A DNA stretch of 32,000 nucleotides from Geobacter metallireducens GS-15 (GCF_000012925.1 NC_007517.1:510001-542000); one strand, 5' to 3'. Shown: positions 4,370-30,234, counted from the stretch's first letter. Program-made: numbers and translations. Notes: generated by a model from the sequence alone, not told the origin.

Positions 4370-5431
4370 ATGACCCTGTTGACCGAAACCCTGTCAAATA
4401 TCCGTCCCGTGGACGCCGGCCTCATGGCCCAGGCCCAGGCGCGGCTCGACAACAAGACCAAGCCCATCGGCTCCCTCGGCCGCCTGGAGGAGTTCGCCCG
4501 GCGCACCGTGGCCATTAGCGGGAGCCTGGACCCTTCTACGGCGAAGAAAGCGATCTTCACCTTCGCCGCCGACCACGGGGTGGTGGAGGAGGGGGTTTCC
4601 GCCTTCCCGAAGGAAGTGACGGTCCAGATGGTCTTCAATTTCCTCAAGGGGGGAGCCGGGATCAACGTCCTTGCCAACCACGTGGGTGCCGATGTCCTCG
4701 TGGTGGACATGGGGATCGACCATGATTTCGGCGACACCCCTGGCCTCATCGACCGCAAGGTGGCCCGCGGTACCCGCAACATGGCGAAGGGGCCGGCCAT
4801 GACCCGGGAGGAGGCCGTGACGGCCCTGGAAGCGGGGATCGAACTGGCCTGCGGCTGCAAGGCCGACGGAGTTGCCATGGCGGGTACCGGGGAGATGGGA
4901 ATCGGCAACACGACGGCGGCATCGGCCATCATCGCCGCCTTCTCCGGGAAAACCGTCGCCGACGTGACCCACCGGGGAACCGGCATCAATGACGCCGCAC
5001 TGGCGAAGAAGGTCACGATCATCGAGCAGGCCCTTGCCGTGAACCGCCCCGACCCGAAGGACCCCATCGACGTCCTTGCCAAGGTGGGGGGGCTGGAGAT
5101 CGCCGGCATCGCCGGCCTTGTCCTCGGCTGCGCCGCCAATCGGATTCCGGTGGTGGTGGACGGCTTCATCTCCACGGCCGGCGCCCTCATTGCCTGTGAG
5201 CTTTGCCCCACGGTGAAGGAGTACATTTTCGCGGCCCACGAGTCGGTGGAGATCGGCCACCGGTTCATGCTGGAGCGGATCGGCGCGGAACCGATCCTCG
5301 ATCTGCACCTGCGCCTCGGCGAGGGGACCGGAGCGGCTCTGGCCATGGGGCTCATCGAAGCGGGAGTCAAGATTCTGAAAGAAATGGCCACCTTCGCGGA
5401 GGCCGGCGTGGAAAAAGGCCGGGACCAGTAA
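4370..5431 (+). CDS. cobT: Nicotinate-nucleotide--dimethylbenzimidazole phosphoribosyltransferase
   Basis: ATG at 4370 after [56 protein letters not shown] are CobT signatures. The stop TAA (5429-5431) lies inside a degenerate heptamer unit of repeat A. Confidence 0.9.
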
Positions 5432-5559
5432 CCGGGGACCAGGGACTGGGAAAACCTTTATCCAACCGATGAACGGGATCAGGAACATGAATATGCTGAA
5501 GTCGCATGAGCAGAAGAGGTTTTTTACCGGTCCCCGGTCCCCGGTCCCCAGTCCCCGCC
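5417..5559. repeat. GGGGACC-heptamer inverted-repeat element A (spans the cobT stop and cobS 5' end)
   Basis: + arm GGCCGGGACCAGTAACCGGGGACCAGGGACTGGGAAAACC (5417-5456). - arm GGTTTTTACCGGTCCCCGGTCCCCGGTCCCCAGTCCCCGCC (5518-5559). 61 nt spacer containing ATGs at 5469, 5487 and 5493. Confidence 0.85.
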
Positions 5560-6293
5560 TTTTCTTTATCGCCTTCCAGTTCCTGACCATCATCCCCCTG
5601 CCGTTCACCCTCCGTTGGGAGGAGAACGACCTGGGGCGCTCCATGGCGTTCTTTCCCCTGGCGGGGCTCACCATAGGCGGGCTCCTGGCCGGGGCTGACT
5701 TTCTCCTGGCGGAGGTTCTGCCCCGCCCGATTGAGGACCTCCTCCTGGTGGCGCTCCTGGCGGCCATGACCGGGGCGCTCCACCACGACGGGCTCGCCGA
5801 TGTCTGCGACGGCCTGGCTGCCCGGGGGAGCCGGGACCGTTTCCTGGCGGTGATGAAGGATTCGCGCATCGGCGCCGTGGGGGTGGTGGGGCTCGTGCTG
5901 GGGCTTCTCCTCAAGTACCAGGCCCTCCTGGCCCTTTCCCCCGAGGTGAAGCGCCAGGTCCTCTTCTTCTTCCCGGCCGTGGCCCGCTTCGCCCAGGTGC
6001 AGATGACCGTCGGTTCCCGGCGGGCTCGGGAGGACGGCCTCGGCGCCGCCTGTATCGCCGGTGCCGGTGTGACACAGCTTCTGGTGGCTGGGGCCATAAC
6101 TCTTGCTGCGACGTATTTTCTTCTCGGCATGAAGGGGATCGGTTGCTGGGCGGTCCTCTCCCTCTTCACGGCCGGGACAAAGGCCTGGTCCCACCGGCGC
6201 CTCGGCGGGGTGACCGGCGATGTCATCGGCTGTGCCAGTGAGTTGAACGAAATTATCTGCCTGCTGATTATTGTGGGCATGCAGAAGATGTAA
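5469..6293 (+). CDS. cobS: Adenosylcobinamide-GDP ribazoletransferase (cobalamin 5'-phosphate synthase)
   Basis: FQFLTIIPLP..., HHDGLADVCDG, multiple TM segments typical of CobS. Start uncertain (ATG 5469, 5487 or 5493, none with a strong SD). All candidates force translation of the C-rich repeat arm (TGPRSPVPSPR) as an N-terminal extension. Confidence 0.8.
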   Translation: MNGIRNMNMLKSHEQKRFFTGPRSPVPSPRLFFIAFQFLTIIPLPFTLRWEENDLGRSMAFFPLAGLTIGGLLAGADFLLAEVLPRPIEDLLLVALLAAMTGALHHDGLADVCDGLAARGSRDRFLAVMKDSRIGAVGVVGLVLGLLLKYQALLALSPEVKRQVLFFFPAVARFAQVQMTVGSRRAREDGLGAACIAGAGVTQLLVAGAITLAATYFLLGMKGIGCWAVLSLFTAGTKAWSHRRLGGVTGDVIGCASELNEIICLLIIVGMQKM

Positions 6294-6303
6294 GGAAAGC
6301 GAC

Positions 6304-6909
6304 ATGACACCAAAAACACGGATTCATCTCATCCGCCACGGCGAAGTTGAAGGGGCCGGGCCGGTGCGTCGTTATAACGGCCATACCGACGTGGCCCTCT
6401 CGGAGCGGGGGCGGAGCCAGTACCACGCCATCAAGGAGCGCTTTGCGGACGCCCCCATAACGGCCCTCTACACGAGCGATCTCCGGCGCTGCGCCTGGGG
6501 GGCCGAGGTGCTCGGCTCCCACCTGGGTCTCACCCCGGTGCGAAAACCGGAGCTGCGGGAGATGGGGGTGGGGATCTGGGAGGGTAAGAGCTGGCCCGAG
6601 CTTATGGAGCAGTATCCTGCAGAGTGGCAGGCCCGGCTCGACGACATCGTCAACTACCGGGTCCCCCAGGGGGAAAGTGTTCTCGACGTGCACGGCCGGG
6701 TGATGCCGGTCATCAATGACATCGTGGAGCGCCACCGGGGTGAGGAAGTCCTCGTGGTGGCCCACGGCGGGGTGAACCGGATCATCCTCCTGAACGCCAT
6801 CGGCGCCCCCCTTTCGAGCCTTTTTGCCATCGAGCAGACCTACTGTTGCCTGAACATCATTGACTACTTCGCCGACGGCAACACCGTCGTGAAGCTGGTG
6901 AACGGCTGA
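6304..6909 (+). CDS. cobC: Alpha-ribazole-5'-phosphate phosphatase (histidine phosphatase family)
   Basis: ATG 6304 after [19 protein letters not shown]...[23 protein letters not shown] are histidine phosphatase motifs. Context between cobS and cbiA. Confidence 0.8.
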
Positions 6910-6913
6910 CGTC

Positions 6914-8302
6914 ATGAAATCAATCATCATCGCAGCGCCCCACAGCGGGTCGGGCAAGACGACCATCACCCTCGGCATTATGGAGTGCCTGAAGCGGCGC
7001 GGACTCACGGTGGCCCCCTTCAAGGTGGGGCCCGACTTCATCGATCCCGGTTATCACCGTCTCATCTGCGGCCGTCCCTCCGTCAACCTGGACGGCTGGA
7101 TGTGCGGCGGCGACTTCGTGCAGGAGACCTTCTTTCACCACGCCGCCGGCGCCGACATCGCTGTCGTCGAGGGGGTCATGGGGCTCTTTGACGGCATCGG
7201 CGGCGTGTCGGACGAGGGGAGCACCGCGGAGGTGGCGAAGCTCCTGGGGGGGCCGGTGGTCCTTGTGGCGGACGCCAAGGGGCAGGCCCGCAGCGTCGCC
7301 GCCCTGGTGAAGGGGTTTGCCGATTTCGACCCCGAGGTGAGGGTCGTGGGGGTCATCTTCAATAACGTGGCGAGCGATGCCCACGGCCGCATCCTGCGGG
7401 AGGCCGTGGAAAGTCATCTCCCCGACGTGCGGGTTTTGGGGTGCATCCCCCGCGACGAGAGCCTCTCCATCCCCTCGCGGCACCTGGGGCTCTTTACCGT
7501 TGATGAGAACCCCCTCCCGGCGGAGTTTCTCGATCACCTCGTGGAGGTGGTCCGGGAGCATGTGGATCTGGGGATGCTCTGGAGCGTGGCCACCCTTCAG
7601 GGGGCGTCTGATGTAAAGAGGCGGCAGGATGCGCCGCGCCGGGAACCGGTCCGGATCGGCGTTGCCCGCGATGCCGCCTTCTGCTTCGTCTACGAGGACA
7701 ATCTGCGGCTCCTGCGTGAGGCCGGCGCGGAGCTGGTGGAGTTCTCTCCCCTGGCCGACAGGGAGCTTCCCGAAGGGGTTGCGGGGCTCTACCTCCCCGG
7801 CGGGTACCCGGAGGTTTTCGCCGACGTCCTGGCAGACAACACCCCCATGAAGGATGCGGTGCGCGGGGCGGTGGTCGGGGAGATGCCGGTCTATGCCGAG
7901 TGCGGCGGGTTCATCTACCTTTCCCGGGGGGTGACTGGCATGCGGGATGATCTGGAATCGTTCAACGAATTTGTCGGCATCTTCCCCGTCGCCACCCTGA
8001 TGCTCCCCCGCCGCAAGGCCCTGGGGTATCGGGAGGTGGAGCTTGCCGCAGACTCCATCATCGGCCCCGTTGGCGCCATGGCCCGGGGGCACGAGTTCCA
8101 CTACTCGGAGATGGAGGCGATGCCCCCCGAGGTGGAGCGCCTCTACCGGGTGCGCCGGGCCGGCATCGACTTGGGGACGGAAGGGTATCGCCACCGGAAC
8201 TGTCTTGCCTCCTACGTCCATATCCACTTCGGGAGTTGCCCGGATATGGCGGAGGCGTTCGTGAACCATTGCCGAAACTACGCACAAAGGAGCCATTCAT
8301 GA
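6914..8302 (+). CDS. cbiA: Cobyrinate a,c-diamide synthase
   Basis: 462 aa. [33 protein letters not shown]-terminal GATase with [10 protein letters not shown]. Confidence 0.9.
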
Positions 8303-9606
8303 AAACCCAGATCGAAATCGCCCGCGAAGGGACCATTTCTTCCCAGATGATGGCCGTGGCAGCCGAAGAGCACGTTTCCCCCGACTATGTCCGGCAGATG
8401 GTCGCCGAAGGGAAGATCGTCATCCCCGGCAACCACAGCCGCAAGCCCCGGGCCGTCGGCATCGGCAAGGGACTGCGCACCAAGGTGAACGCCTCCATCG
8501 GTACCTCCTCCGACATCATCGACTATGGGGCCGAGGTGCGGAAGGCCCTGGCCGCCCAGGAGGCGGGGGCCGACACCCTCATGGAGCTCTCCGTGGGGGG
8601 CGATCTGGACCGGGTGCGGCGGGAGGTGATCGCCGCCGTGGATCTCCCCGTGGGGAACGTCCCCCTCTACCAGGCCTTCTGCGAGGCGGCCCGCAAGTAC
8701 GGTGATCCCAATAAACTGGATCCGGAGATGCTCTTCGACCTGATCGAAAAGCAGTGCGAGGACGGCATGGCCTTCATGGCGGTCCACTGCGGCATCAACC
8801 TCTATACCATCGAGCGCCTGAAGCGGCAGGGGTACCGCTACGGCGGCCTCGTCTCCAAGGGGGGGGTCAGCATGGTGGCCTGGATGATGGCCAACAGGCG
8901 GGAAAATCCCCTCTACGAGCAATTCGACCGGGTAACTTCGATCCTCAGGAAATACGACACGGTCCTCTCGCTGGGGAACGGGCTGCGGGCTGGCGCCATC
9001 CACGACTCCTCGGACCGGGCCCAGATCCAGGAGCTCCTCATTAACTGCGAGCTGGCTGAACTGGGGCGCGAGATGGGGTGCCAGATGCTCGTGGAGGGGC
9101 CGGGGCACGTGCCGCTCGACGAGGTGGAGGGGAACATCCAGCTCCAGAAGCGGATGAGCGGCGGCGCCCCCTACTACATGCTGGGTCCCATCTCCACCGA
9201 CGTGGCCCCCGGCTTCGACCACATCACCGCCGCCATCGGCGCGGCCCAGTCCTCCCGCTACGGCGCCGACCTCATCTGCTACATCACTCCGGCCGAGCAC
9301 CTGGCCCTCCCCAACGAGGAGGATGTCCGCCAGGGGGTGAAGGCAGCGAAGATCGCGGCCTACATCGGCGACATGAACAAGTACCCGGAACGGGGCCGGG
9401 AGCGGGACAAGGAGATGTCCAAGGCCCGCCGCGACCTGGATTGGAAGAAGCAGTTCGAGCTGGCCCTCTTCCCGGAGGATGCCAAAGCCATCCGTGCCAG
9501 CCGCACCCCCGAGGACGAGGCCACCTGCACCATGTGCGGCGACTTCTGCGCCTCGCGCGGGGCGGGGAAGCTTTTTGCGGCGGATCTGCGGGGGGATAAG
9601 ATTTAA
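8299..9606 (+). CDS. bzaF: 5-hydroxybenzimidazole synthase (ThiC-paralogous radical SAM enzyme)
   Basis: ATG 8299 overlaps the cbiA stop (ATGA) and follows AAAGGAG. ThiC-fold sequence throughout ([44 protein letters not shown]). C-terminal CTMCGDFC Fe-S motif. About 435 aa, lacks the long ThiC N-domain, and sits inside a cobamide cluster. Confidence 0.8.
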
Positions 9607-9615
9607 GTCGCGAAT

Positions 9616-9737
9616 AACACGGAGAGACGGAGAGCACAGAGAAAAGAGCCGTGCTATGTGAATTATCCAAGGTGCTACCTGCAATTCTCGCATGTGTAAA
9701 ATATGTGGGTGGCGCCGCTATTGGCTCTCTCCGTGTT
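9616..9737. repeat. CACAGAG-type tandem-unit hairpin F1 (bzaF|cbiM)
   Basis: AACACGGAGAGACGGAGAGCACAGAGAAAAGAGCC (9616-9650) and GGCTCTCTCCGTGTT (9723-9737). AACACGGAGAG and CTCTCCGTGTT are an exact 11 bp complement. 72 nt spacer. Confidence 0.6.
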
Positions 9738-9761
9738 GAAAGAAGGTTTATTGAGGTTGTC

Positions 9762-10499
9762 ATGAAAACGGTGCTTTTTATAGGGTGCGTGCTCCTTATT
9801 ATGGCCTCTCCCGCCCATGCCATGCACATCTCCGAGGGAATCCTCCCCTTTGGCTGGGCTGCGCTCTGGTTCGCGGTGGCGGTGCCATTCCTGGCGGTGG
9901 GGCTCAGGCGGCTCAACGAGCTTTCCCGGGACGACCTCTCCATGAAGCCGCTGGTGGGGCTCATGGCGGCGGTGGTCTTTATCATCTCCTGCATGCCGAT
10001 CCCGGTCCCCAGCGCCGGCACCTGTTCCCACCCCTGCGGTACCGGTATCTCGGCCATCCTGGTGGGACCCTTCGTGTCGGTGGCCATCGCCGCGGTGGCA
10101 CTCCTCATTCAGGCGCTCCTCCTGGCCCACGGGGGGCTGTCGACCCTGGGGGCCGACATCGTTTCCATGGGAGTGGTGGGCTCATTCGCGGGGTGGTTTG
10201 TGTTCCAGGGGATGCGCCGGGTGAGGGCGAGCCTTGCCGTGGCGGGGTTCGCGGCGGGGCTTCTTGCCGACTGGGCCACCTATCTGGCCACCTCCGGGGA
10301 GCTGGCCGCCGGTATCCGGGGAAGCGAGCCCTTTATCCCCCTTTTTCTGAAGATTGCCGTGGCCTTCATCCCGACACAGCTTCCCCTGGGGATTCTCGAA
10401 GGGGCCATGACCGCCGGTATGGTGGTGCTCCTCTCCCGCAAGCGGCCCGACCTGCTGGTGAAGATGCGGGTGCTCCGGGCCGAAGAGGTGGCGGCGTGA
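9762..10499 (+). CDS. cbiM: Cobalt ECF transporter substrate-capture component CbiM
   Basis: ATG 9762 after GAGGT. Signal peptide ...SPAHA then MHISEGILP (the mature N-terminal Met-His needed for metal binding). SCMPIPVP...HPCGTGISAIL. Confidence 0.9.
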   Translation: MKTVLFIGCVLLIMASPAHAMHISEGILPFGWAALWFAVAVPFLAVGLRRLNELSRDDLSMKPLVGLMAAVVFIISCMPIPVPSAGTCSHPCGTGISAILVGPFVSVAIAAVALLIQALLLAHGGLSTLGADIVSMGVVGSFAGWFVFQGMRRVRASLAVAGFAAGLLADWATYLATSGELAAGIRGSEPFIPLFLKIAVAFIPTQLPLGILEGAMTAGMVVLLSRKRPDLLVKMRVLRAEEVAA

Positions 10500-10777
10500 G
10501 GATTTTTTTGCTGGTTGCGGTACTCTGGGGTGGTGTAGTGTTGGGCGGCTGGGCGGCCGCCGGCGACAAGTGGCCGGGGGTCGACGAGACAGTGGTGGAA
10601 AAAATCGCCAGGGAGCAGGGGCGGAGAGCCCATGCCCCCCTCATTAATACCGACCAGGGTGACCTTCTGCTTTTCGCTTTCCTGGCAGCCGGTGCCGTTG
10701 GGGGATTCGCGGCGGGATACTGGTGGCGGATGCTCGTCACGGAAAAAGGGAACGGTTCGAAGCGGGGAGAACCATAA
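10496..10777 (+). CDS. cbiN: Cobalt transport protein CbiN
   Basis: GTG 10496 overlaps the cbiM stop (GTGA). 93 aa, two TM helices flanking GVDETVVEKIA...PLINTDQGDLLLFAFLAAGAVGGFAAGY, resembling the CbiN ...GE.ESLLFALQAA.G motif. Positioned between cbiM and cbiQ. Confidence 0.7.
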   Translation: MRIFLLVAVLWGGVVLGGWAAAGDKWPGVDETVVEKIAREQGRRAHAPLINTDQGDLLLFAFLAAGAVGGFAAGYWWRMLVTEKGNGSKRGEP

Positions 10778-10779
10778 CC

Positions 10780-11532
10780 ATGCACCGACTCTCGCACCCC
10801 GTATCGACCCCAAATCCCGTCACCCTGCTCGACCCCCGCGTGAAGCTCGTTTCGGCCCTGGCGCTTCTCGTGATGGTGGTCAGCTGCACGGGGTTCGCCT
10901 TTCCGCTCCTGGCGGCGGCCCTGGGCCTTGCACTCTGCCTCTGGCTGGGAGTACCGGCGCAGCTGATCCTCGTGCGGTTTGCCGAGCCCCTTTTCATCGC
11001 GGCGGTGGTGCTCCTCCTCAAAACTTTCTTCAGTGGCACCGAGCCCCTGTTCAGCGTCCATCCCTTCGGCCTGGAGATCGTGGCCCACCGCGACGGCCTC
11101 GCCGAGGGGGGCGCCATCGCGGCCCGGATCGCCGGCGCCGTGGCGGTGGTGGCGGCGGTGGGGTTCGCCACCCCCTTCACCGACCTCATGGCAGCGCTCG
11201 CGTGGCTGAGGGTTCCCCAAGGGCTCATCGATGTGGCCCTCTTTGCCTGGCGTTACCTCTTCGTCCTCTTCGACGACGCCCAGGTGGTCTACGCTGCCCA
11301 GCGGAACCGCCTTGGCTACGCCGGTTTCCGGCGGGGGTTGCGCTCCTTCGGGATGCTGGCCGGCGCCCTGGTCATCAAGGCCTTTGACACGAGCCAGACC
11401 ATCACCACCGCCATGGTGCAGCGGGGGTACGACGGGAACCTTCCCCTCTTGAAGCACCGTCCTTTCAGGGCCGAGGAGGCGACTGCATCGGTTCTCTTCG
11501 TGGCGGCCATGGGGATGTTGCGGTGGCTATAG
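10780..11532 (+). CDS. cbiQ: ECF transporter transmembrane (T) component CbiQ
   Basis: ATG 10780. LDPRVKLV..., ...AAQRNRLGY..., FDTSQTITTAMVQRGY are typical CbiQ/EcfT motifs. Confidence 0.85.
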   Translation: MHRLSHPVSTPNPVTLLDPRVKLVSALALLVMVVSCTGFAFPLLAAALGLALCLWLGVPAQLILVRFAEPLFIAAVVLLLKTFFSGTEPLFSVHPFGLEIVAHRDGLAEGGAIAARIAGAVAVVAAVGFATPFTDLMAALAWLRVPQGLIDVALFAWRYLFVLFDDAQVVYAAQRNRLGYAGFRRGLRSFGMLAGALVIKAFDTSQTITTAMVQRGYDGNLPLLKHRPFRAEEATASVLFVAAMGMLRWL

Positions 11533-12365
11533 CGCGCCTCTCCGTGGATATTCGGGCCTTCACCTACCCCGACGGCACCCGGGCCCTGGCCGACATCCGG
11601 TTTGAGGTGGGAAAGGGTGAATTCTGCGGCATCCTCGGCTCCAACGGGTCGGGGAAGACGACCCTTCTCAGGATCATGGACGGCCTCGTCAAGGATTACG
11701 ATGGCCAGGTGCTCCTGGACGGCCGGGACGTGCGGAAGCTCCATCCCCGGGATATCTACCGGACCGTGGGGCTCGTCTTCCAGAATCCCGACGACCAGCT
11801 TTTCGCCCACACGGTCTTCGAGGATGTGGCCTTCGGCCCCCGCAACATGGGGTTTGGGGAGGCGGCGGTGAAGGGGCGGGTGGAGGAGGCTCTGGCCGCG
11901 GTGGAGATGGGGGAGCTGGCCGGCAAGAATATCCACGCCCTCAGCTACGGCCAGAAGAAGCGGGTCTGCATTGCCGGGCTCCTGGCCATGGGGCATGAGG
12001 TGCTCCTTATGGACGAGCCCACCGCCGGCCTCGATCCCATGGGGGAGTACCGGATGATGGAGCTCCTGACGCGGCTCAACCGCGACCAGGGGGTGACCGT
12101 CGTCATGGCGACCCACTCGGTGGATCTGGTCCCCCTTTTCCTCCACCGGCTCCACATCCTGAGCCGGGGGAAGATCGTCCGGAGTGGCCCCCCCGAGGAG
12201 GTCTTCACCGCACCAGCCGAACTGGAAAGCGTCAAGCTGCGGCTTCCCCACATCGCCGAGCTGATTCACCGGCTGAAGCACGAGGACGGCCTTCCCTTCC
12301 GGCGGCTTCCTCTCACCATTGGCGAGGCCCGGCGGGAGATCGTGGAAATACTGCAAAAACATTAG
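11523..12365 (+). CDS. cbiO: ECF transporter ATPase CbiO
   Basis: GTG 11523 overlapping the cbiQ end. Walker A GSNGSGKTT, signature LSYGQKKR, Walker B LLMDEPTAGLD. Confidence 0.9.
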   Translation: MAIARLSVDIRAFTYPDGTRALADIRFEVGKGEFCGILGSNGSGKTTLLRIMDGLVKDYDGQVLLDGRDVRKLHPRDIYRTVGLVFQNPDDQLFAHTVFEDVAFGPRNMGFGEAAVKGRVEEALAAVEMGELAGKNIHALSYGQKKRVCIAGLLAMGHEVLLMDEPTAGLDPMGEYRMMELLTRLNRDQGVTVVMATHSVDLVPLFLHRLHILSRGKIVRSGPPEEVFTAPAELESVKLRLPHIAELIHRLKHEDGLPFRRLPLTIGEARREIVEILQKH

Positions 12366-12467
12366 CCACAGAGGACACAGAGCGCACAGAGAATGGCTTT
12401 TGGCCCATGAGTCTTGGAAAACGGAGTTTGTTTCCTTTTTCTCTGTGTCCTCTGTGATCTCTGTGGC
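12365..12467. repeat. CACAGAG-type tandem-unit hairpin F2 (cbiO|cbiX)
   Basis: GCCACAGAG-GA-CACAGAG-CG-CACAGAGAA (12365-12393) vs TTCTCTGTG-TC-CTCTGTG-AT-CTCTGTGGC (12439-12467). Complementary except for the 2 nt inter-unit spacers. 45 nt loop. Confidence 0.85.
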
Positions 12468-12483
12468 AAAGAATGGAGTGCTC

Positions 12484-12867
12484 ATGAAAACCGCAATTTT
12501 ACTGATGGCCCACGGGAGCCGCATTGCCGAGGCTAACAACGCCGTGCGGGAGATCGCCGCCATGGTAAAGGAAATGACCGGCTACGACATCGTTGAGGTG
12601 TCGTTCCGGGAACAGCACCTTCCCAACATCCAGGAGGGGATCGACGCTTGCGTGGCGAAAGGGGCGAGGCGGGTGCTGCTGATGCCCTACTTCCTCTTCG
12701 TGGGGGCCCACGTCCAGGAGGACCTTCCCGAGGAGATGGCCCAGGCCCGGGAGCGCTACCCCAAAGTCGAATTCGCCATGGGGCCGCACCTTGGTGTTCA
12801 CCGCAAGCTGGCCGAGGTGGAAGTGGAGCGGATCGCCGAGGCCCTCACCGCCACGGGGTGGCACTGA
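12484..12867 (+). CDS. cbiX: Sirohydrochlorin cobaltochelatase, small CbiX(S) type
   Basis: 127 aa. ILLMAHGSR, LLMPYFLFVGAHV are CbiX motifs. ATG 12484 after GGAG. Confidence 0.8.
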   Translation: MKTAILLMAHGSRIAEANNAVREIAAMVKEMTGYDIVEVSFREQHLPNIQEGIDACVAKGARRVLLMPYFLFVGAHVQEDLPEEMAQARERYPKVEFAMGPHLGVHRKLAEVEVERIAEALTATGWH

Positions 12868-13511
12868 TGTCGGTCCACCTCGCCCCCGAGGAGATCGAGG
12901 CCGAATCGTTCCGCCTCATCGATGAAGAAGTGGGAACCCATCACTGGGGGCCTGCCGAGTGGCCGGTGGTGCGGCGGGCGATCCACACGAGCGCCGATTT
13001 CGACTACGTCCGCACCATGGTCTTCTCCCCCCGGGCCGTTGCCCGTGGCGTGGCGGCCCTGCGACAAGGGCGGGGGATCGTCACCGACACCACCATGGCC
13101 CTGTCGGGGATAGCCAAGCCGCGGCTCAAGCGTTTCGGCCTCGGCGCCGCCTGCTTCGTGGCCGACCCGGAGGTGGCCCGGGAGGCGAAGGCGCTCGGCA
13201 TTACCCGTTCTATTGTGGCCATGCGCAAGGGTGCGGCAGACGGAGGGAACGGCATCTTCGTCATCGGCAACGCCCCCACGGCCCTCTTCGAACTGTTGCG
13301 TCTCATCCGCGAGGAAGGGGTGCGTCCGGCGCTGATCGTGGGGCTGCCGGTGGGGTTCGTGGGGGCCGCAGAGAGCAAGGAGGCCCTTCTGGCCCTGGAG
13401 GATGAGTTTCCCGACATCCCCTTCATCACCAACCGGGGGCGCAAGGGGGGGTCCAACGTGGCCGCTGCCGTGGTGAATGCGCTCCTGATCCTGGCGGAGG
13501 AGGCGGGGTAG
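12867..13511 (+). CDS. cbiC: Cobalt-precorrin-8 methylmutase
   Basis: ATG 12867 overlaps the cbiX stop (TGATG). IHTSADFDY, IVTDTTMA, FVIGNAPTAL, GLPVGFVGAAESK are CbiC/CobH signatures. Confidence 0.9.
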   Translation: MSVHLAPEEIEAESFRLIDEEVGTHHWGPAEWPVVRRAIHTSADFDYVRTMVFSPRAVARGVAALRQGRGIVTDTTMALSGIAKPRLKRFGLGAACFVADPEVAREAKALGITRSIVAMRKGAADGGNGIFVIGNAPTALFELLRLIREEGVRPALIVGLPVGFVGAAESKEALLALEDEFPDIPFITNRGRKGGSNVAAAVVNALLILAEEAG

Positions 13512-13535
13512 GGTGACTCCTGCCGGCCACGTTCC

Positions 13536-14645
13536 ATGAACACGAAACCACTCCGTCACGGTTACACCACCGGCGCCTGTGCCGCCGCCGCCGCCAAGGG
13601 GGCAGCCCGGATGCTCCGGGAGCAGCGTCCCGTGGAGGAGGTGGAGCTCGTCCTTCCCAAAGGAGAGCGGGTCGCTTTTCGCCTCCATGGCCAGGAATTC
13701 GATGACAGCGCCGCCTCCTGCTTCGTGGTGAAGGACGCGGGGGACGACCCCGACGTGACCAACGGCGCCGAGATCCACGCCCGGGTCCGGCGCGAGCCCC
13801 TGAACCGCTCCGGCGCCCGGACCATGGTCTTCGTGGATGGCGGGAAGGGGGTCGGCACGGTGACCAAACCGGGGCTCGGGGTGGGGGTGGGGAATCCGGC
13901 CATCAACCCGGTGCCGATGCGGATGATCACCGAGGGGGTGAAGGAAGAGTTCTCCGTCGTCTGCCTTCCCCAGGTTCTCCACGTCACCATCTCCATCCCC
14001 AACGGCGAGGAACTGGCGAAGAAGACCCTCAATGCCCGCCTCGGCATCGTGGGGGGGCTCTCCATCCTCGGCACCACCGGCATCGTGCGCCCCATCTCCG
14101 CCAAGGCCTGGACCGATACCCTCGATGCGGCCCTGGACGTGGCCCGGGCCTGCGGCTGCGAAACGATTGTCCTCTCCACGGGGAGGACCAGCGAGTTGGT
14201 GGCTATACATGCCGGGATCGGGGACCGGGGACCGGGGACCGGGAAAACCTTGCCCGAAGAGGCCTATGTGATGATGGGGGACCACGTGGGGTACGCGCTC
14301 CGGGCCTGCGCCCGCAAGGGGGTGCGTCACGTTATCCTGGTGGGGCAGTTCGCCAAGCTCCTCAAGATTGCCTGCGGCCACGAGCAGACCCACGTCTCCT
14401 CCTCGGAGCTGGATCTGCAAATGCTGGCGGAGTGGCTTCACGAATTGGGTTCCCGGTCCCCGGTCCCCGGCCCCTGGTCCCGGTACAACACCGCCCGCCA
14501 GGTGCTGGAGGAGTCGGGTAACGACTCGCTCTTCATGGAGCTCGTCTGTACCCGGGCCCGTGATGCGGCCCGGCGCCTGGCCCCTTCCCTCGACATCAAG
14601 GTTTTGCTGGCAGGGTACGATTCAACGGTGCTATATTTCGGGTAA
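13536..14645 (+). CDS. cbiD: Cobalt-precorrin-5B (C1)-methyltransferase
   Basis: 369 aa. LRHGYTTGACAAAAAKGA, DAGDDPDVTNG, NPAINPVP, GGLSILGTTGIVRP. Contains two in-frame heptamer-repeat arms (see repeats B+ and B-). Confidence 0.9.
   Translation: MNTKPLRHGYTTGACAAAAAKGAARMLREQRPVEEVELVLPKGERVAFRLHGQEFDDSAASCFVVKDAGDDPDVTNGAEIHARVRREPLNRSGARTMVFVDGGKGVGTVTKPGLGVGVGNPAINPVPMRMITEGVKEEFSVVCLPQVLHVTISIPNGEELAKKTLNARLGIVGGLSILGTTGIVRPISAKAWTDTLDAALDVARACGCETIVLSTGRTSELVAIHAGIGDRGPGTGKTLPEEAYVMMGDHVGYALRACARKGVRHVILVGQFAKLLKIACGHEQTHVSSSELDLQMLAEWLHELGSRSPVPGPWSRYNTARQVLEESGNDSLFMELVCTRARDAARRLAPSLDIKVLLAGYDSTVLYFG
14211..14249. repeat. GGGGACC-heptamer arm B+ inside cbiD
   Basis: GCCGGGATCGGGGACCGGGGACCGGGGACCGGGAAAACC, translated GIGDRGPGTGKT. 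Four G-runs separated by 3 nt. Confidence 0.85.
14447..14486. repeat. GGTCCCC-heptamer arm B- inside cbiD (inverted partner of B+)
   Basis: GGGTTCCCGGTCCCCGGTCCCCGGCCCCTGGTCCCGGTAC, translated GSRSPVPGPWSRY. About 200 nt downstream of B+. Confidence 0.85.
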
Positions 14646-14681
14646 AATTTCGGCATGGAAACCTTCGTCGGGGAGAATGTC

Positions 14682-14999
14682 ATGACAGAGCCTCGTATCC
14701 ATATCCCGCGAGACAGAATCATAGAATTCTGCCAGCGGTGGAAGATCACGGAGTTTTCACTTTTCGGCTCGGTGCTCCGCGACGATTTCCGGCCCGACAG
14801 CGATGTTGACGTGCTGATTTCCTTTGCCCCGGACGCCGCATGGACCCTGCTCGACCATGTGGATATGCAGGACGAGCTCCAGACGATCTTCGGCCGGAGC
14901 GTGGATCTCGTGAGCCGCAAGGGGATAGAGCGAAGCCGGAACGAAGTGCGGCGCAAAGCCATTCTTGAGTCAGCGGAGATCTTCTATGAAGCCGCGTGA
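14682..14999 (+). CDS. MNT-type nucleotidyltransferase (type VII antitoxin, MntA-like)
   Basis: FGSVLRDDFRPDSDVDVLISF is the GSxxR...DxD minimal nucleotidyltransferase motif. ATG 14682 after GGGGAGA (ATG 14655 is an alternative). The stop overlaps the downstream HEPN gene by 14 nt. Confidence 0.8.
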   Translation: MTEPRIHIPRDRIIEFCQRWKITEFSLFGSVLRDDFRPDSDVDVLISFAPDAAWTLLDHVDMQDELQTIFGRSVDLVSRKGIERSRNEVRRKAILESAEIFYEAA

Positions 15000-15336: not shown

Positions 15337-15352
15337 TAAAGGAGGTTCCCCC

Positions 15353-19158: not shown

Positions 19159-19164
19159 GCTATC

Positions 19165-19253
19165 AAGAATCCAGAATTCAGAAGCCAGAATTCAGAAGAA
19201 AAGCACGGTCTTTTCATGATGTCTACTTCTGTATTCTGACTCCTGACTCCTTC
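19165..19253. repeat. CAGAAKY-heptamer tandem-unit hairpin G (cbiG|cbiH)
   Basis: AAGAATC-CAGAATT-CAGAAGC-CAGAATT-CAGAAG (19165-19198) vs CTTCTGTATTCTGACTCCTGACTCCTTC (19226-19253). Imperfect inverted arms of period 7, 27 nt loop. Confidence 0.75.
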
Positions 19254-19267
19254 ATTTGAGGTTAACC

Positions 19268-21661
19268 ATGTCCAAGCTCTACGTCGTCGGCATCGGTCCC
19301 GGCGACCTCGACCATATGACCTTCCAGGCCAACGAGGCCCTTGACGCCGCCGATGTGGTGGTGGGGTACAAGACCTACCTGGACCTGATCGCCCCTCTCA
19401 TCGCCGGCAAGGAGATTATCTCCTCCGGAATGATGAAGGAGGTGGAGCGCTGCCGCGAAGCCTTGGACCTGGCCGCCTCGGGGAAGACGGTGGCCCTGGT
19501 CTCCAGCGGCGACGCCGGCATCTACGGCATGGCGGGGCTCGCCCTGGAGCTGGCGGCGGAGTTGGTCGCCCCCCCCGAGATCGTAGTGGTTCCCGGCGTT
19601 TCGGCCGTGCAGGCGGCTGCAGCGGTCCTCGGCGCTCCCCTTATGCATGATTTCACCGTCATCTCCCTCTCGGATCTCCTGACCCCGTGGGACCTCATCG
19701 AACGGCGGCTTGTGGCCGCCGCCACGGCCGATTTCGTCGTAGCCCTCTACAACCCCCGGAGCAAGGGGCGGGTGCAGCAGATCGAGGAGGCCCGGCAGAT
19801 CCTCCTGTCTGCCCGGCCGGCCGATACCCCGGTGGGGATCGTCCGCAACGCCTTGCGGGAGGGGGAGGAGCGGATCGTCACCACCCTCGGAAGGATGCTC
19901 GACCACCCCATCGATATGTTCTCTCTGGTCATCGTGGGGAACTCTGCCACCTTCGTCGACCCGGCGGGGCGGATGGTGACCCCGCGCGGCTACGCCGCCG
20001 GGATCCGGGACCGGGGACCAGGGGAAAAGGCCGGGACCGGGGACCAGGGACCAGGGACCAGGGAAAAACAAAAAAAACCAGTCACTGAGTACTCGGTGGA
20101 TTCCCCGTCTCAGATTTTGAATTCCCGGTCCCCGGTCCCTGGTCCCCGGTCCCGGTCTTTGATGGTGGTCGGTACGGCCTCCGATGTGGGCAAATCGGTC
20201 CTCACGGCCGGCATCTGCCGCATCCTCAAGAACCGGGGGCTCCGGGTGGCCCCCTTCAAGTCCCAGAACATGGCCCTCAACTCGGCGGTCACCCCCGAGG
20301 GAGGGGAGATCGGCCGGGCCCAGGCGGTACAGGCGGCGGCCTGCGGCATCCCCCCCCATGCCGACATGAACCCGATCCTCCTGAAACCCTCCTCCGATAC
20401 GGGAAGTCAGGTCATCGTCGCGGGTGAGGTGGTGGGGAATATGTCGGTGCGGGAGTACCACGCCTATAAACCCATGGCTTTCGAGCAGGTACGGGAAAGT
20501 TTTGACCGCCTCTCCTCGGCCCACGATGTCGTGGTCATCGAGGGGGCCGGAAGCATCGCCGAGATCAACCTGAAAGCCCACGACATCGCCAACCTGAAGG
20601 TGGCCGAGATGGCCGGATGCCGGGCCATCCTCGTGGCCGACATTGACCGGGGCGGGGTCTTCGCCCAGATCGTGGGGACCCTGGAGCTTCTGGAGCCGGC
20701 GGAGCGGGAGCGGATCGCGGGCATCGTCATCAACAAGTTCCGGGGGGATGCCTCGCTTCTCACGCCGGGAATCAAGTTCGTGGAGAAGCGGACCGGGGTG
20801 CCGGTTCTGGGGGTGGTCCCCTGCTTCAGCGGCTTCCGCATCCCCGAGGAGGACAGCGTCGCCCTGGAAAAACGGGGATCGGGGACCGGGGACCGGGGAC
20901 CGGGGGAAAAGCTCAAAATCGGGGTGGTGAAGCTGTCGCGGATCTCCAACTACACCGACTTCGACGCCTTGGAAGCGGAACCCGACGTGCGTCTTACCTA
21001 CGTGGAAGGGGCGGACCAGCTCCGGGGGCTCGATCTCCTCATTATCCCCGGGAGCAAGGCGACCACCACCGACCTCTACTTCCTCATGGAGCGGGGGCTC
21101 TTCGAGGCGATCCGGGCCTTTCAGGGGCTCATCGTGGGCATCTGCGGCGGCTACCAGATGCTGGGAAAGCGGGTCTCCGACCCCCACGCCGTGGAGTCGG
21201 GGATCCGGGAGGCCGAAGGGCTGGGTCTTCTGGACGTGGTGACGGTGATGCTGGAAAAGAAGACCACCCACCAGGCCCGGGCGGAACTCCTGCCGGCGGG
21301 GTACCAGGTGGCTCCCCGCTGCCGGGGCGAGCTGGAGGGGTACGAAATTCACATGGGGGAAACGATCCTCGGTCCGAGCGTCCGCCCCTTTGCCCGGGCC
21401 ACGGAACGGTCGGGGCGGGCGGTGGAGGTGCTGGACGGCGCCGTCTCCTGCGACGGCCGGGTCTTCGGCACTTACCTCCACGGCATCTTCGACAACGCCG
21501 GTTTCCGCTCCGCCTTCCTCAACAAGCTCCGGCGGGCCAAGGGGCTTGTTGAGCGCCCCGCGGCGGAGGCGCAGGACGACCCCTTTGATCTCCTGGCGGC
21601 CCACCTGGAGAAGCACCTGGACATGGAGCGGCTCCTGGCCGTCTGCGGGCTTGCCCGGTGA
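19268..21661 (+). CDS. cbiH-cobQ: Single uninterrupted ORF: CbiH (cobalt-factor III C17-methyltransferase, ~19268-19997) fused to CobQ/CbiP (cobyric acid synthase, ~20162-21661)
   Basis: CbiH: KLYVVGIGPGDLDHMT, SSGDAGIYGMAG, ...MVTPRGY (normal CbiH C-terminus). CobQ: LMVVGTASDVGKSV, APFKSQNMALNS, GATase IGVVKLSRISNYTDFD, ICGGYQMLG, TYLHGIFDN. There is no in-frame stop between the two. An in-frame ATG at 20162 could also allow independent CobQ initiation. Confidence 0.85.
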   Translation: MSKLYVVGIGPGDLDHMTFQANEALDAADVVVGYKTYLDLIAPLIAGKEIISSGMMKEVERCREALDLAASGKTVALVSSGDAGIYGMAGLALELAAELVAPPEIVVVPGVSAVQAAAAVLGAPLMHDFTVISLSDLLTPWDLIERRLVAAATADFVVALYNPRSKGRVQQIEEARQILLSARPADTPVGIVRNALREGEERIVTTLGRMLDHPIDMFSLVIVGNSATFVDPAGRMVTPRGYAAGIRDRGPGEKAGTGDQGPGTREKQKKPVTEYSVDSPSQILNSRSPVPGPRSRSLMVVGTASDVGKSVLTAGICRILKNRGLRVAPFKSQNMALNSAVTPEGGEIGRAQAVQAAACGIPPHADMNPILLKPSSDTGSQVIVAGEVVGNMSVREYHAYKPMAFEQVRESFDRLSSAHDVVVIEGAGSIAEINLKAHDIANLKVAEMAGCRAILVADIDRGGVFAQIVGTLELLEPAERERIAGIVINKFRGDASLLTPGIKFVEKRTGVPVLGVVPCFSGFRIPEEDSVALEKRGSGTGDRGPGEKLKIGVVKLSRISNYTDFDALEAEPDVRLTYVEGADQLRGLDLLIIPGSKATTTDLYFLMERGLFEAIRAFQGLIVGICGGYQMLGKRVSDPHAVESGIREAEGLGLLDVVTVMLEKKTTHQARAELLPAGYQVAPRCRGELEGYEIHMGETILGPSVRPFARATERSGRAVEVLDGAVSCDGRVFGTYLHGIFDNAGFRSAFLNKLRRAKGLVERPAAEAQDDPFDLLAAHLEKHLDMERLLAVCGLAR
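19998..20157. repeat. GGGGACC-heptamer inverted-repeat element C (forms the whole cbiH::cobQ linker)
   Basis: Two tandem + arms CCGGGATCCGGGACCGGGGACCAGGGGAAAAGG and CCGGGACCGGGGACCAGGGACCAGGGACCAGGGAAAAAC (19998-20070), an A-rich spacer, then - arm GAATTCCCGGTCCCCGGTCCCTGGTCCCCGGTCCCGGTC (20119-20157). Confidence 0.85.
20873..20912. repeat. GGGGACC-heptamer solo arm D inside cobQ (interdomain linker)
   Basis: CGGGGATCGGGGACCGGGGACCGGGGACCGGGGGAAAAGC, translated RGSGTGDRGPGEKL. Lies between the ATPase-like and glutamine amidotransferase domains. Confidence 0.85.
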
Positions 21662-22614
21662 CCGAGGCCGGCGCGGTCGTCCTGACCGCGGTCCTCCTCG
21701 ATCTCCTCTTCGGCGACCCCCGCTGGCTCCCCCATCCGGTGGTGGCCATCGGCAAGCTGATCACGGTGCTGGAGAAATTCCTGCGGCGGCTGGTGACGAA
21801 CGAGCGTGTCGGCGGGGTGCTGCTCCTTCTGCTGGCCGTCGGCATCACCGCCGGCGCCGCCTGGGGGGCGGTGCGGGGAGCTTCTCTCGTCCACCCGCTC
21901 GCTGGAGTCGTTGTGTCGGCTCTCCTCGGGTGGACCTGTCTGGCGGCCCGGTCCCTCCATGGGGAATCGAAGCGGGTGGCCGACGCCCTGGTACGGGGCG
22001 ACCTGCCGGAGGCCCGGCGGTATCTCTCCTTTATCGTGGGACGGGACACTGCTGGACTTTCCGAGCCGGAGGTCTGGCGCGGCGCCGTGGAGACCGTGGC
22101 TGAGAACACTTCCGACGGCGTCATCGCCCCGCTCCTCTTCTTCATGATCGGCGGGGCACCCCTGGCCCTGGCCTACAAGGCGGTCAACACCCTCGATTCC
22201 ATGGTGGGGTACAAGAACGAGCGGTATCTTCATTTCGGCTGGGCCTCGGCCCGGAGCGACGACCTGGCCAACCTGATCCCGGCCAGGCTCACGGGGCTCC
22301 TCATGACCCTTGCCGCTCCCCTGGCGGGTCTGTCGGGGCGCGGTGCCTGGCGGATAATGCTCCGGGATGGCCGCAATCACTCATCCCCCAACAGCGGCAT
22401 CCCCGAGGCGGCCGCCGCCGGCGCCCTCGGCGTGCAACTGGGGGGGACCAACGTCTATTTCGGCAAGCCGGTGGCGAAGCCCACCATTGGCGATCCCTTG
22501 AAGCCCCTTGACGCCACGGCCTGGCGGGGTACCGTGCGGCTCATGTACGGCGCCGAGTGTTTGCTGGTCCTTCTGGCGGCAGTAATGACCACCATCCTGA
22601 CAATTACAGACTAA
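21658..22614 (+). CDS. cbiB: Adenosylcobinamide-phosphate synthase
   Basis: GTG 21658 overlaps the cobQ stop (GTGA). LLDLLFGDPRWLPHPVVAIGKLI, SPNSG.PEAA.AGALGV..GG are CbiB/CobD-family signatures. Membrane protein. Confidence 0.9.
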   Translation: MTEAGAVVLTAVLLDLLFGDPRWLPHPVVAIGKLITVLEKFLRRLVTNERVGGVLLLLLAVGITAGAAWGAVRGASLVHPLAGVVVSALLGWTCLAARSLHGESKRVADALVRGDLPEARRYLSFIVGRDTAGLSEPEVWRGAVETVAENTSDGVIAPLLFFMIGGAPLALAYKAVNTLDSMVGYKNERYLHFGWASARSDDLANLIPARLTGLLMTLAAPLAGLSGRGAWRIMLRDGRNHSSPNSGIPEAAAAGALGVQLGGTNVYFGKPVAKPTIGDPLKPLDATAWRGTVRLMYGAECLLVLLAAVMTTILTITD

Positions 22615-22730
22615 ACACAGAGGCGCAGAGACACAGAGATGGTAATTCCGGAGACCCTGGCTGAAATCTGTTTGCTTGCAGGGTAACACCTTAAAACGGT
22701 TTTCCTCTGGGTCCCTGTGCCCCTGTGGTG
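22615..22730. repeat. CACAGAG-type tandem-unit hairpin F4 (cbiB|cobD)
   Basis: ACACAGAG-GCGCAGAG-ACACAGAG-A (22615-22639, period 8) vs TCCTCTGGGTCCCTGTGCCCCTGTGGTG (22703-22730). Degenerate inverted arms, 63 nt spacer. Confidence 0.65.
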
Positions 22731-22746
22731 AAAGGTTTTACGAATA

Positions 22747-25114
<2,368 letters not shown>

Positions 25115-28892: not shown

Positions 28893-29707
28893 CGTTTCTC
28901 GACATCTTTCAGTACGGCTTTCTCCTTCGGGCCCTTGCGGCCGGCTCCCTCATCGCGGCCCTTTGCGCAGTACTCGGGGTATTCCTCGTCCTGCGGCGCC
29001 TTTCACTCATCGGCGACGGCCTGGCCCATGTCACCTTCGGGAGTGTGGCCCTGGCCCTGTTCCTCCGCTTCCAGTCGGTCTATGCCACCGTCGCCGCCAT
29101 CCCGGCCGTGCTCCTGGCGGCCCTGGGGATCCTGAGGCTGGCCGAGCGGGCGCGGATCTACGGCGACGCCGCCATCGGCATCGTCTCGTCCCTGGGGGTC
29201 GCCACCGGCATCCTGCTGGCGAGCATGGCCGGCGGCTTCAATGTGGACCTCTTCAGCTACCTCTTCGGCAACATCCTTTCCATCAGCCCCTTCGAACTGG
29301 GGCAGACGGCGGTCCTTTTCGTCATCGTCTGCCTCACGGTGCTCCTCTGCTATCACGACCTCTTCGCCATCGCCTTTGACGAGGAGCTTGCCCGCACCTC
29401 GGGAATCCGGGTCGATCGGATCAACGCGGTGCTCGTTCTCCTTACGGCGCTCACTGTGGTCCTGGCCATGAAGGTGGTGGGGATCATGCTCATCTCGGCG
29501 CTTCTCATCCTTCCGGCCGTCACGTCGCTGCAGATTGCCCGGGGGTTCCGGACCGCCATCCTCCTCGCCGTGCTCCTCGGGGTCCTGTCGGTGGTGGCGG
29601 GGATCGTCATCTCGTTCCTGGCGAATCTCCCTGCCGGCGCCACCATCATCCTGGTGAACTTCACCCTGTTCCTCGTCTCCTTCGGGCTGCGGAAGCTGCG
29701 GAAGTAG
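28889..29707 (+). CDS. znuB: Metal ABC transporter permease, ZnuB-like
   Basis: GTG 28889 overlapping the znuC stop. ABC-3 family pattern (FLLRALAAG, LIGDGLAHVTFG) with 8-9 TM segments. Confidence 0.85.
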   Translation: MTFLDIFQYGFLLRALAAGSLIAALCAVLGVFLVLRRLSLIGDGLAHVTFGSVALALFLRFQSVYATVAAIPAVLLAALGILRLAERARIYGDAAIGIVSSLGVATGILLASMAGGFNVDLFSYLFGNILSISPFELGQTAVLFVIVCLTVLLCYHDLFAIAFDEELARTSGIRVDRINAVLVLLTALTVVLAMKVVGIMLISALLILPAVTSLQIARGFRTAILLAVLLGVLSVVAGIVISFLANLPAGATIILVNFTLFLVSFGLRKLRK

Positions 29708-29786
29708 CGCGAAAAAAAGATTCCTCTCCCCGGCAAAGTAGTCTATTATCCAGCCGTTTCGAGATCAGCCGCAGGAGAAAAGACCC

Positions 29787-30206
29787 ATGGGCGAAACCGT
29801 CAGATTCGGCATCTCCATCGACGACAAACTGCTGGAGAGTTTCGACCGCCTCATCGAGCAGAAGGGGTACATGAACCGCTCCGAGGCGGTCCGCGACCTG
29901 ATCCGCGCGGCCCTGGTGGAGCTCAAGTGGGAAGGGGGCGAGGAGGAGACCGTCGGCACCGTGACCCTCGTCTACAACCACCACGTCCGGGACCTCTCCG
30001 ACAAGCTCACCGAGCAGCAGCACTCCCACCACAATGAGATCGTCTCGGCCCTCCACGTCCATCTGGATGCCCACAACTGTCTTGAGGTCCTCGTGGTGCG
30101 AGGCAAGGCCCGGGAGGTGAAGAAGATCGCCGACGAGCTGATTGGCGTGAAGGGGGTCAAACACGGCAAGCTCGTCATGACCACCACGGGGGAGGAACTG
30201 CACTGA
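29787..30206 (+). CDS. nikR: Nickel-responsive transcriptional regulator NikR
   Basis: 139 aa. N-terminal ribbon-helix-helix ([15 protein letters not shown]...[14 protein letters not shown]). C-terminal metal-binding domain with the H..HH...H.H..C pattern ([22 protein letters not shown]). Confidence 0.9.
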
Positions 30207-30208
30207 AA

Positions 30209-30234
30209 GGCCGGGACCGGGGTCCGGGAAAAGC
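30209..30234. repeat. GGGGACC-family solo degenerate arm E (downstream of nikR)
   Basis: GGCCGGGACCGGGGTCCGGGAAAAGC. Shares the 5' CCGGGAC start and the 3' GGGAAAAGC terminus with arms A-D. Confidence 0.6.

Follow-up and report, generated by a model that had tools for sequence, protein, structure and literature searches.

Heptanucleotide repeats in short tandem arrays dispersed over a genome were described in Geobacter metallireducens GS-15 (Aklujkar 2009, PMC2700814), where a 49-copy 'four tandem heptanucleotide repeat' family (Gmet_H401 to Gmet_H449, the Gmet_H4xx family) was listed as putative regulatory RNA elements without further analysis. In that genome, 17 of the 49 copies lie within genes and 32 are intergenic, most of them shortly 3′ of a gene within an operon and 5′ of the following gene. 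Dispersed heptamers that form G-quadruplexes were described in Xanthomonas, with the unit GGGAATC, and in Nostoc, with the unit GGGGA(C/T)T (Rehm et al. 2015, PMC4692102). These arrays mostly consist of four units, are located after stop codons, often occur as convergent pairs and were shown to form G-quadruplexes in vitro; no effect on expression and no bias towards a functional class of genes was found, and phase variation was judged unlikely. Here we analysed a stretch of 32,000 nucleotides of the GS-15 genome (NC_007517.1:510001-542000, hereafter the window; a window position is the genome position minus 510,000), which harbours nine arms of such arrays, built on GGGGACC or its reverse complement GGTCCCC, in and around the genes of a cobalamin (B12) cluster.

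Heptamer arrays of the B12 cluster and their published family

The arrays in the window are copies of the already published heptamer family of G. metallireducens, which itself belongs to a published repeat class. The coordinates and sequences of H407 to H413 (PMC2700814, Fig. S2) match arms A+, A-, B+, B-, C+, C- and D+, with about four tandem GGGACCG units between the flanks AAAGGCC... and ...GGGAAAACC, and Table S4 of the same paper places the copies 3′ of cobT and inside cobS, cbiD and the fused cobQ gene. The CbiD protein encoded in the window is 100% identical to that of G. metallireducens. The published list lacks two partial arms, which start at 19996 and 30207. The paper also contains no description of orthologous persistence, unit switching or arm covariation, which are described here. 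When searching the literature for the heptamer strings, we found Aklujkar 2009 only, and a search for G-quadruplexes together with Geobacter gave nothing relevant.

Six G-rich arms on the + strand (5417, 14211, 19998, 20031, 20873 and 30209) and three C-rich arms (5518, 14447 and 20119) were read from the sequence. The pattern GGGACCRGGGA, with at most one mismatch, was found 28 times in the window compared to 5.25 expected matches, and none of 100 shuffled sequences reached 28. In addition, Tandem Repeats Finder reported period-7 arrays at 5527, 14214, 14448, 19998/20007, 20124 and 20873. The original prediction, made from the sequence of the window, had placed nine arms at these positions, assigned them to a single repeat family and arranged three G/C pairs as inverted repeats, and all of this is borne out, the pairs by long stems in RNA folding. 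Its literal consensus needs correction, as it matches no copy owing to a surplus G in the final unit; once loosened, the pattern matches five of the G arms. The arms contain between 2.5 and 5 heptamer units and are arranged as follows:

Arm A+ (Gmet_H407), 5413..5457, + strand: degenerate G arm, covers the final 4 codons of cobT
Spacer of pair A, 5458..5518, + strand: unique sequence, with the putative ribosome-binding site of cobS (AGGA, 5481-5484) and its start codon ATG at 5493
Arm A- (Gmet_H408), 5519..5563, - strand: C arm on the sense strand, peptide RFFTGPRSPVPSPRL, N-terminal extension of CobS
Arm B+ (Gmet_H409), 14206..14250, + strand: in frame in cbiD, peptide AGIGDRGPGTGKT, variable loop
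Arm B- (Gmet_H410), 14445..14489, - strand: in frame in cbiD, peptide LGSRSPVPGPWSRYN
Arm C0+, 19996..20028, + strand: CobJ-CobQ linker, peptide AGIRDRGPGE, absent from the published list
Arm C+ (Gmet_H411), 20025..20069, + strand: G arm of the linker pair, peptide KAGTGDQGPGTREK
Arm C- (Gmet_H412), 20117..20161, - strand: C arm of the linker pair, peptide LNSRSPVPGPRSRSL, directly before the P-loop domain of CobQ
Arm D+ (Gmet_H413), 20867..20911, + strand: solitary G arm in a loop of CobQ, peptide KRGSGTGDRGPGEK
Arm E+, 30207..30236, + strand: short intergenic G arm of about 2.5 units, absent from the published list

Arm B- pairs with B+ over about 200 nt of intervening conserved coding sequence, C0+ is a partial tandem duplicate of the start of C+, and E+ begins directly after the stop codon of nikR (TGA, 30204-30206), upstream of folK. 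Pfam searches identified the genes as those encoding CobT (4307-5431), CobS, CbiD, a TP_methylase and CobQ fusion in one open reading frame (ORF; 19256-21661), NikR and HPPK. At gathering thresholds, Rfam reported the cobalamin riboswitch only, and no family covered the arms. This riboswitch (RF00174, 109.8 bits), located upstream of cobU at 3460-3664 (+), is the established B12 sensor of the operon.

We consider it probable, by a modest measure, that the arrays are Gmet_H4xx copies that behave as G-quadruplex- and hairpin-prone heptamer microsatellites, kept uniform by processes at the level of DNA and tolerated within the B12 enzymes. This class of dispersed microsatellites is known from GC-rich bacteria, and its arrays typically follow a stop codon within an operon at a distance of a few nucleotides. 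There, a G arm stands alone or converges with a C arm, and such a pair can fold into a stem of 30-40 bp. Arrays may be propagated and kept uniform by replication slippage within the array, and arms and neighbouring arrays may also exchange sequence through conversion or template switching. Any effect on expression would be generic and based on structure, such as a decay barrier at the mRNA 3′ end or ribosome pausing near the stop codon, and not specific for cobalamin.

The comparison with the class of Rehm et al. (PMC4692102) shows a heptamer unit, a G tract of at least three, a mode of four units, placement after stop codons and convergent pairs on both sides. The unit GGGGACC and the copy number, about 49 per genome compared to about 185, are different. 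Moreover, the Xanthomonas and Nostoc arrays are under-represented in coding sequences (7-11% intragenic), whereas 35% of the G. metallireducens copies (17 of 49) lie within genes. When the copies of G. metallireducens are aligned, a stop triplet opens 18 of 47 of them at one and the same column (P = 1.5e-12), and all pairs show the same polarity, with 11 G-then-C pairs and none in the opposite order (hand count from Fig. S2).

We also scanned genomes from many phyla with an exact pattern, using one genome per species and at least 120 loci, which gave 137 arrays from genomes other than that of G. metallireducens; the pattern chosen biases this set, which does not amount to a census. Among the matches listed, arrays were found in Xanthomonadales, Acidobacteriota, Gemmatimonadota, Planctomycetota, Actinomycetota and other Geobacteraceae. 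Many genomes had more than one array, and many arrays were flanked as in Geobacter (...GCC-array-GGGAAAAGC). The commonest length in the 137 listed arrays was four units (56 arrays). On the G strand, an ORF of at least 80 codons ended at most 25 nt upstream in 30% of these arrays compared to 7.3% of random positions (P = 3e-15), and the listed pairs were G-then-C in 38 cases and C-then-G in 5. Arrays of 7-12 perfect core units were observed in Kitasatospora, a Planctomycetota genome, Luteimonas, Acidobacteriota and Pseudoxanthomonas (L004, L040, L114, L085, L094 and L108). When extended over imperfect units, a few listed arrays exceed 20 units, and three reach 48.

Orthologous sites, unit switching and probable tolerance in proteins

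We compared the orthologous B12 regions of G. hydrogenophilus (L124), Geotalea uraniireducens (L125), Geomobilimonas luticola (L126), a G. anodireducens metagenome-assembled genome (L127), G. pickeringii (L132) and five uncultured relatives (L128-L131 and L133); nine of these loci were scanned whole, and L133 at the four known array sites. All arrays in the nine loci fall at these four sites, namely cbiD site 1, cbiD site 2, the CobJ-CobQ linker and the CobQ loop, and L133 carries arrays at all four. The state of the arrays ranges from perfect (the cobQ loop of G. luticola, 0 mismatches) to fully decayed (G. pickeringii). By these shared positions, the copies in cbiD, the linker and the cobQ loop are at least as old as the split of Geobacter from Geotalea and Geomobilimonas.

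The repeat unit differs between lineages (GGGGACC, GGGACTC or GGGGATC) and is coherent within a lineage, across arrays and across paired arms. In L131 and L133, cbiD site 1 harbours GGGACTC (or GGGGCTC) and cbiD site 2 the complementary GAGTCCC; the G arm of the linker has units of the GGGACTC type, with a matching CCCGAGT in the C arm of L131 only, and the cobQ loop contains GGGACTC seven or four times. In Geotalea, GGGGATC is found four times at cbiD site 1 and GATCCC(A/C) three times at site 2, and the cobQ loop of L128 contains GGGGAGC three times. The G tract is always retained, while the remaining letters of the unit vary. Since the units switch coherently while the encoded peptides drift, homogenisation or constraint acts on the nucleic acid and not on the protein.

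In agreement with a covariation of the arms, duplexes of cognate arms were predicted at -85.6 and -81.9 kcal/mol compared to -57.7 and -58.6 kcal/mol for cross-species duplexes, a difference of about 25 kcal/mol. The identity at silent sites between G. metallireducens and distant genera was 0.89-1.0 in three of four array comparisons, with gene means of 0.50-0.58; the fourth comparison (cobQ loop with Geotalea) gave 0.62. Array windows ranked at about the 72nd to 91st percentile of 10-codon windows in silent-site identity. Selection for a hairpin may lie behind the covariation of the arms. Family-wide homogenisation by slippage and conversion suffices to explain it, since the unpaired array in cobQ underwent the same switch as the pairs.

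In frame, the G arms encode permutations of GDRGPGT and the C arms permutations of GPRSPVP. As predicted, the consensus unit is free of stop codons in all six frames (six-frame check), and reading the nine arms in every frame gave three stop codons only: the functional cobT TAA at 5429, a minus-strand TAA in the flank of A- and an out-of-frame TGA at 20118. The statement that most copies are translated, in contrast to ordinary REP elements, is correct for the window, where seven of nine arms lie at least partly in ORFs (two in cbiD, one in the cobQ loop, three in the cobJ-cobQ linker and one at the cobS N-terminus), but not for the genome with its majority of intergenic copies. Likewise, the predicted overlap of an arm with the cobT C-terminus is real, but A+ is translated for 4 codons only (GRDQ) and contains the cobT stop codon (TAA, 5429-5431). 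By comparison with orthologues, the host sites in cbiD, the linker and cobQ are loops whose length varies; the alignment with the solved CbiD structure 1SR8 covers residues 6-218 only, and the insertion loops cannot be placed on it. Arrays are probably tolerated in the B12 enzymes because the unit is open in all six frames, the same flexible Gly/Pro/Arg-rich peptide (GDRGPGT or GPRSPVP) results in every frame, and the sites are variable loops or an inter-domain linker.

These Gly/Pro-rich peptides in loops and at a domain boundary might instead have been selected as flexible protein linkers. We regard this as very unlikely, as the peptide is not conserved (GDRGPGT, GTRDSGL, GSGERGAG, or none), the periodicity of the nucleotides persists instead, and cbiD site 1 is wholly missing in G. 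hydrogenophilus. With regard to the cobQ loop, the L131 array (17459-17510) has grown to seven GGGACTC units in frame (RGLGTRDSGLGTRDSGLGEEK), thus this loop tolerates large changes in unit number. Within the CobJ-CobQ linker ORF, a GGGAAAAACAAAAAAAACC run (A5 C A8, 20064-20077) codes for Lys-rich EKQKK; similar A7-A8 runs occur in close relatives, and the run is a possible site of transcriptional slippage.

The original prediction contained two further proposals, a structure-based link of the arrays to corrin or tetrapyrrole intermediates, offered as speculation, and phase-variable B12 synthesis through slippage of the 7-nt unit. The window contains 7 copies in 32 kb compared to 0.39 expected (P = 2e-7), and 3 independent loci compared to 0.26 expected when pairs and trios are collapsed (P = 2.5e-3). 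Four loci are also found together in a different 32-kb stretch, and P is ~0.06 by a scan statistic over the whole genome. After the collapse of pairs and the scan statistic, we rejected the enrichment in the B12 cluster as evidence for a functional link. The other 42 of the 49 copies are located in unrelated operons, at flagellar genes, ddl-ftsQ, metC, sucB/lpdA, thiamine genes, sigma-54 regulators, cytochromes, signalling genes and others, and clustering is general in the family, with four copies at lpdA-sucB, four around one sigma-54 regulator and three around flgI. The proposed corrin link is thus not upheld, and we see no evidence for a cobalamin-specific role of the arrays. On the scale of the chromosome, 46 of the 47 copies in Fig. 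S2 of PMC2700814 lie at 0.41-1.0 Mb or 2.63-3.85 Mb and one lies in the copy-poor 1.0-2.63 Mb, which makes up 41% of the chromosome and is presumably its terminus-proximal half.

Phase variation of B12 synthesis by 7-nt frameshifts, possibly together with corrin-sensing G-quadruplexes, would agree with a unit length that is not a multiple of three, with the position of arrays inside ORFs and with the changes of unit number during evolution. It has hardly any credibility left for the arrays of this window, which have only 3-5 units and are identical in three independent assemblies (SRR14424466, SRR8145816 and SRR5452404), while all length differences between species keep the frame. Furthermore, the genes serve housekeeping metabolism and do not code for surface antigens, copies outside B12 genes make up 42 of the 49, the enrichment in B12 genes is not exceptional, and phase variation was judged unlikely for the class as a whole (PMC4692102).

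Predicted structures and the origin of the arrays

For the three G/C pairs, we predicted RNA minimum free energies of -83.8, -110.5 and -174.9 kcal/mol (z = -6.5, -6.5 and -5.4), with stems of 30-40 bp and loops of about 50-200 nt. Single arms fold weakly (-12 to -14.5 kcal/mol) and contain no internal palindrome. Tracts compatible with G-quadruplexes exist, as predicted, and the sister repeat class forms G-quadruplexes in vitro (PMC4692102). That each G-rich arm fits the motif was partly confirmed: of the six G arms, B+, C0+, C+ and D+ agree with the canonical form (G3+ N1-7, four times), and E+ and A+ fall outside it because E+ has three G runs of at least three and A+ a 10-nt loop. The quadruplex model of ViennaRNA puts a G-quadruplex at the lowest energy for the solitary D+ alone (-34.2 compared to -12.6 kcal/mol), and wherever a C arm partner exists the hairpin is predicted to dominate. 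None of nine terminator-like sites in 4000-23500 coincides with an arm, when searching for canonical intrinsic terminators.

Such structures raise the possibility that the arrays are functional cis-elements, in which a G arm located after a stop codon switches between a G-quadruplex of RNA or DNA and a hairpin of the G and C arms and thereby tunes mRNA stability, attenuation or translational coupling, with the in-frame copies retaining this role. The commonest length of four units equals the minimum for a G-quadruplex (PMC4692102). The placement 5-11 nt after stop codons is fixed, the G-then-C polarity is strict (11 compared to 0 in G. metallireducens), G tracts are retained while loop letters vary, the changes of units in paired arms are compensatory and the silent-site identity in arrays is high. 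In addition, the ribosome-binding site and start codon of cobS fall in the loop of predicted hairpin A. REP elements of E. coli located at most 15 nt from a stop codon reportedly lower the expression of the upstream gene, a finding attributed to Liang, Rudd and Deutscher in 2015. We nevertheless consider a function of this kind doubtful, although it deserves more weight than any other alternative discussed here. At every site, arrays were lost or have fully decayed in several lineages (G. pickeringii, G. hydrogenophilus, G. anodireducens). The linker hairpin is strong in 4 of 10 lineages (z = -6.7, -5.4, -8.1 and -2.8), while z is above -1.7 in the other six, and no canonical terminator was found at any arm. 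The switched solitary cobQ array again allows family-wide homogenisation to explain the covariation, and Rehm et al. saw no effect on expression or functional class bias (PMC4692102).

Pair A, at the junction of cobT and cobS, was found in G. metallireducens only and is absent from five other cobT/cobS junctions, including that of G. hydrogenophilus. In four of these five junctions, the cobT stop codon overlaps with a TTG start codon of cobS (...GAATATTGAGACTC...). The G. metallireducens junction holds a block of about 135 nt, consisting of an arm, a unique spacer and an arm, which provides a new cobT stop and a new cobS start; by this comparison, pair A appears to have rebuilt the junction. 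Neither a target-site duplication nor a terminal inverted repeat was found at the junction when comparing filled and empty sites, and BLAST against the window and the collected comparison DNA found no paralogues of the spacers of pairs A and C. At the same junction, a metagenomic relative with about 92% CbiD identity (L130, 1129-1187) contains a different insert of 63 nt with the palindrome GGGCGCAAT-TCA-TTGCGCCC. Two unlike structured inserts at one site suggest that the cobT/cobS junction attracts structured inserts.

A gain of this kind in one lineage would also be expected from non-autonomous mobile elements similar to miniature inverted-repeat transposable elements (MITE), REP or REPIN, with arms or doublets moved by a transposase encoded elsewhere. 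The family is multicopy and dispersed, has conserved flanks and clusters locally, and its doublets resemble the architecture of REPINs. REP, BIME and REPIN sequences of gamma-proteobacteria are likewise short, GC-rich, transcribed between cistrons just after stop codons and often arranged as inverted hairpin doublets. The arms described here differ from them, as they are tandem arrays and not palindromes, their spacers are unique and many copies lie in coding sequences. We know of no link of the heptamer family to RAYT proteins. Mobility in this sense is quite unlikely given the clean junction of pair A, the unique inter-arm spacers, single arms without internal palindrome, orthologous sites that are stable since the ancestor of the family, and a variable unit number. 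Moreover, the listing in PMC2700814 shows no transposase beside any copy.

Two other repeat families share single traits with the arrays. The MIRU elements, attributed to Supply et al. in 1997, are said to be intercistronic operon repeats that overlap the stop and start codons of the flanking genes, as does pair A at cobT/cobS, but they have units of 40-100 bp and no G-tract heptamers. The Rickettsia palindromic elements, reportedly described by Ogata et al. in 2000 as selfish DNA inserted in frame in protein genes, also persist in ORFs as additional peptide segments in tolerant regions of proteins. They are, however, about 100-150 bp long with a sequence conserved over its full length, whereas only a tandem array of 30-45 nt is common to the copies described here.

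Several points weigh against the microsatellite reading that we prefer. Pair A is a block of about 135 nt, and slippage alone is insufficient for it because the block arrived with a unique spacer; the seeding of new loci is not accounted for. The flanks AAAGGCC... and ...GGGAAAAcC, common to Geobacter and Xanthomonadales, suggest copying or a common constraint. The mode of four units, the kept G tracts and the covariation of the arms could equally reflect selection for structure and a real function, and the cross-phylum sample of at least 120 loci is biased by its search pattern.

Gene junctions and fusions in the B12 operon

Inverted arrays of other short units were also observed in the window (12363-12467, 19156-19251, 22612-22728 and 25004-25111), with a shared layout of stop codon, purine-rich tandem array, spacer and inverted pyrimidine-rich array. 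The stop codon of cbiO is followed by three copies of CACAGAGNN and three of CTCTGTG, that of cbiB by an array of the ACACAGAG type, and that of cbiG by five copies of (A/T)TCAGAA and then TTCTGAC; at 25004-25111, AGCAACTG is followed by GTTGCTCT. These arrays are probably the 'global regulator binding site' classes of Aklujkar 2009. Counting in the GGGGACC pairs, inverted-array elements are present at at least five gene junctions of the B12 operon.

The operon is also a hot spot for small selfish genes, a different one in each lineage. In G. metallireducens and close relatives, cbiD is separated from the methylase gene that follows it by a toxin-antitoxin pair of the nucleotidyltransferase/HepT-like kind (window 14655-15336). 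The other lineages carry PhdYeFM/PIN, a BglII restriction-modification pair, PDDEXK_3/DUF559, BrnT/BrnA and AAA_15/DUF4276, located at L125 13358-14052, L127 5330-6586, L126 6502-6942, 13304-13777 and 15749-16177, and L132 13967-15714, and L130 and L131 carry BrnT/CopG.

A reading of the cbiH::cobQ linker as new to this locus is not supported. All ten loci contain the CobJ-CobQ fusion, as do all of the 120 best database homologues, of which every named one belongs to the Geobacteraceae. The fusion is therefore ancestral and was not made by the G. metallireducens copies, and we rejected the idea that the heptamer element created it in this species. An ancestral origin of the fusion from such an element is possible. 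A similar arrangement is found in Gmet_0415, a fusion of D-Ala-D-Ala ligase and FtsQ with a heptamer array (Gmet_H403) in its linker (PMC2700814, Table S4), which agrees with the idea that repeats between cistrons make gene fusion easier when they lack stop codons.

One more explanation is that an active process, either gene conversion between dispersed copies or a trans factor that reads the unit, keeps the units uniform and the arms complementary. The G arm after the stop codon and its C arm would then act as operon punctuation in many phyla by means of a G-quadruplex and a hairpin, and loss of one stop codon would turn an element, being stop-free, into a protein linker. This is rather unlikely in our view. 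If true, the loss of the stop would explain both the CobJ-CobQ and the Ddl-FtsQ fusion, which both harbour arrays in their linkers.

As a discovery, the arrays add little because the family and the class are both published; the coherent switching of units and the covariation of the arms are new here and are the parts worth following up. The B12 cluster offers an unusually clean natural case of a nucleic-acid repeat inside conserved enzymes over a long evolutionary time, in which the periodicity of the DNA, the G tracts and the complementary arms are renewed and the encoded peptide is left to drift. Stop-free intercistronic repeats of this kind could ease gene fusion, and the B12 cluster of the Geobacteraceae is a good place to ask whether heptamer repeats function and how dispersed repeats stay uniform.

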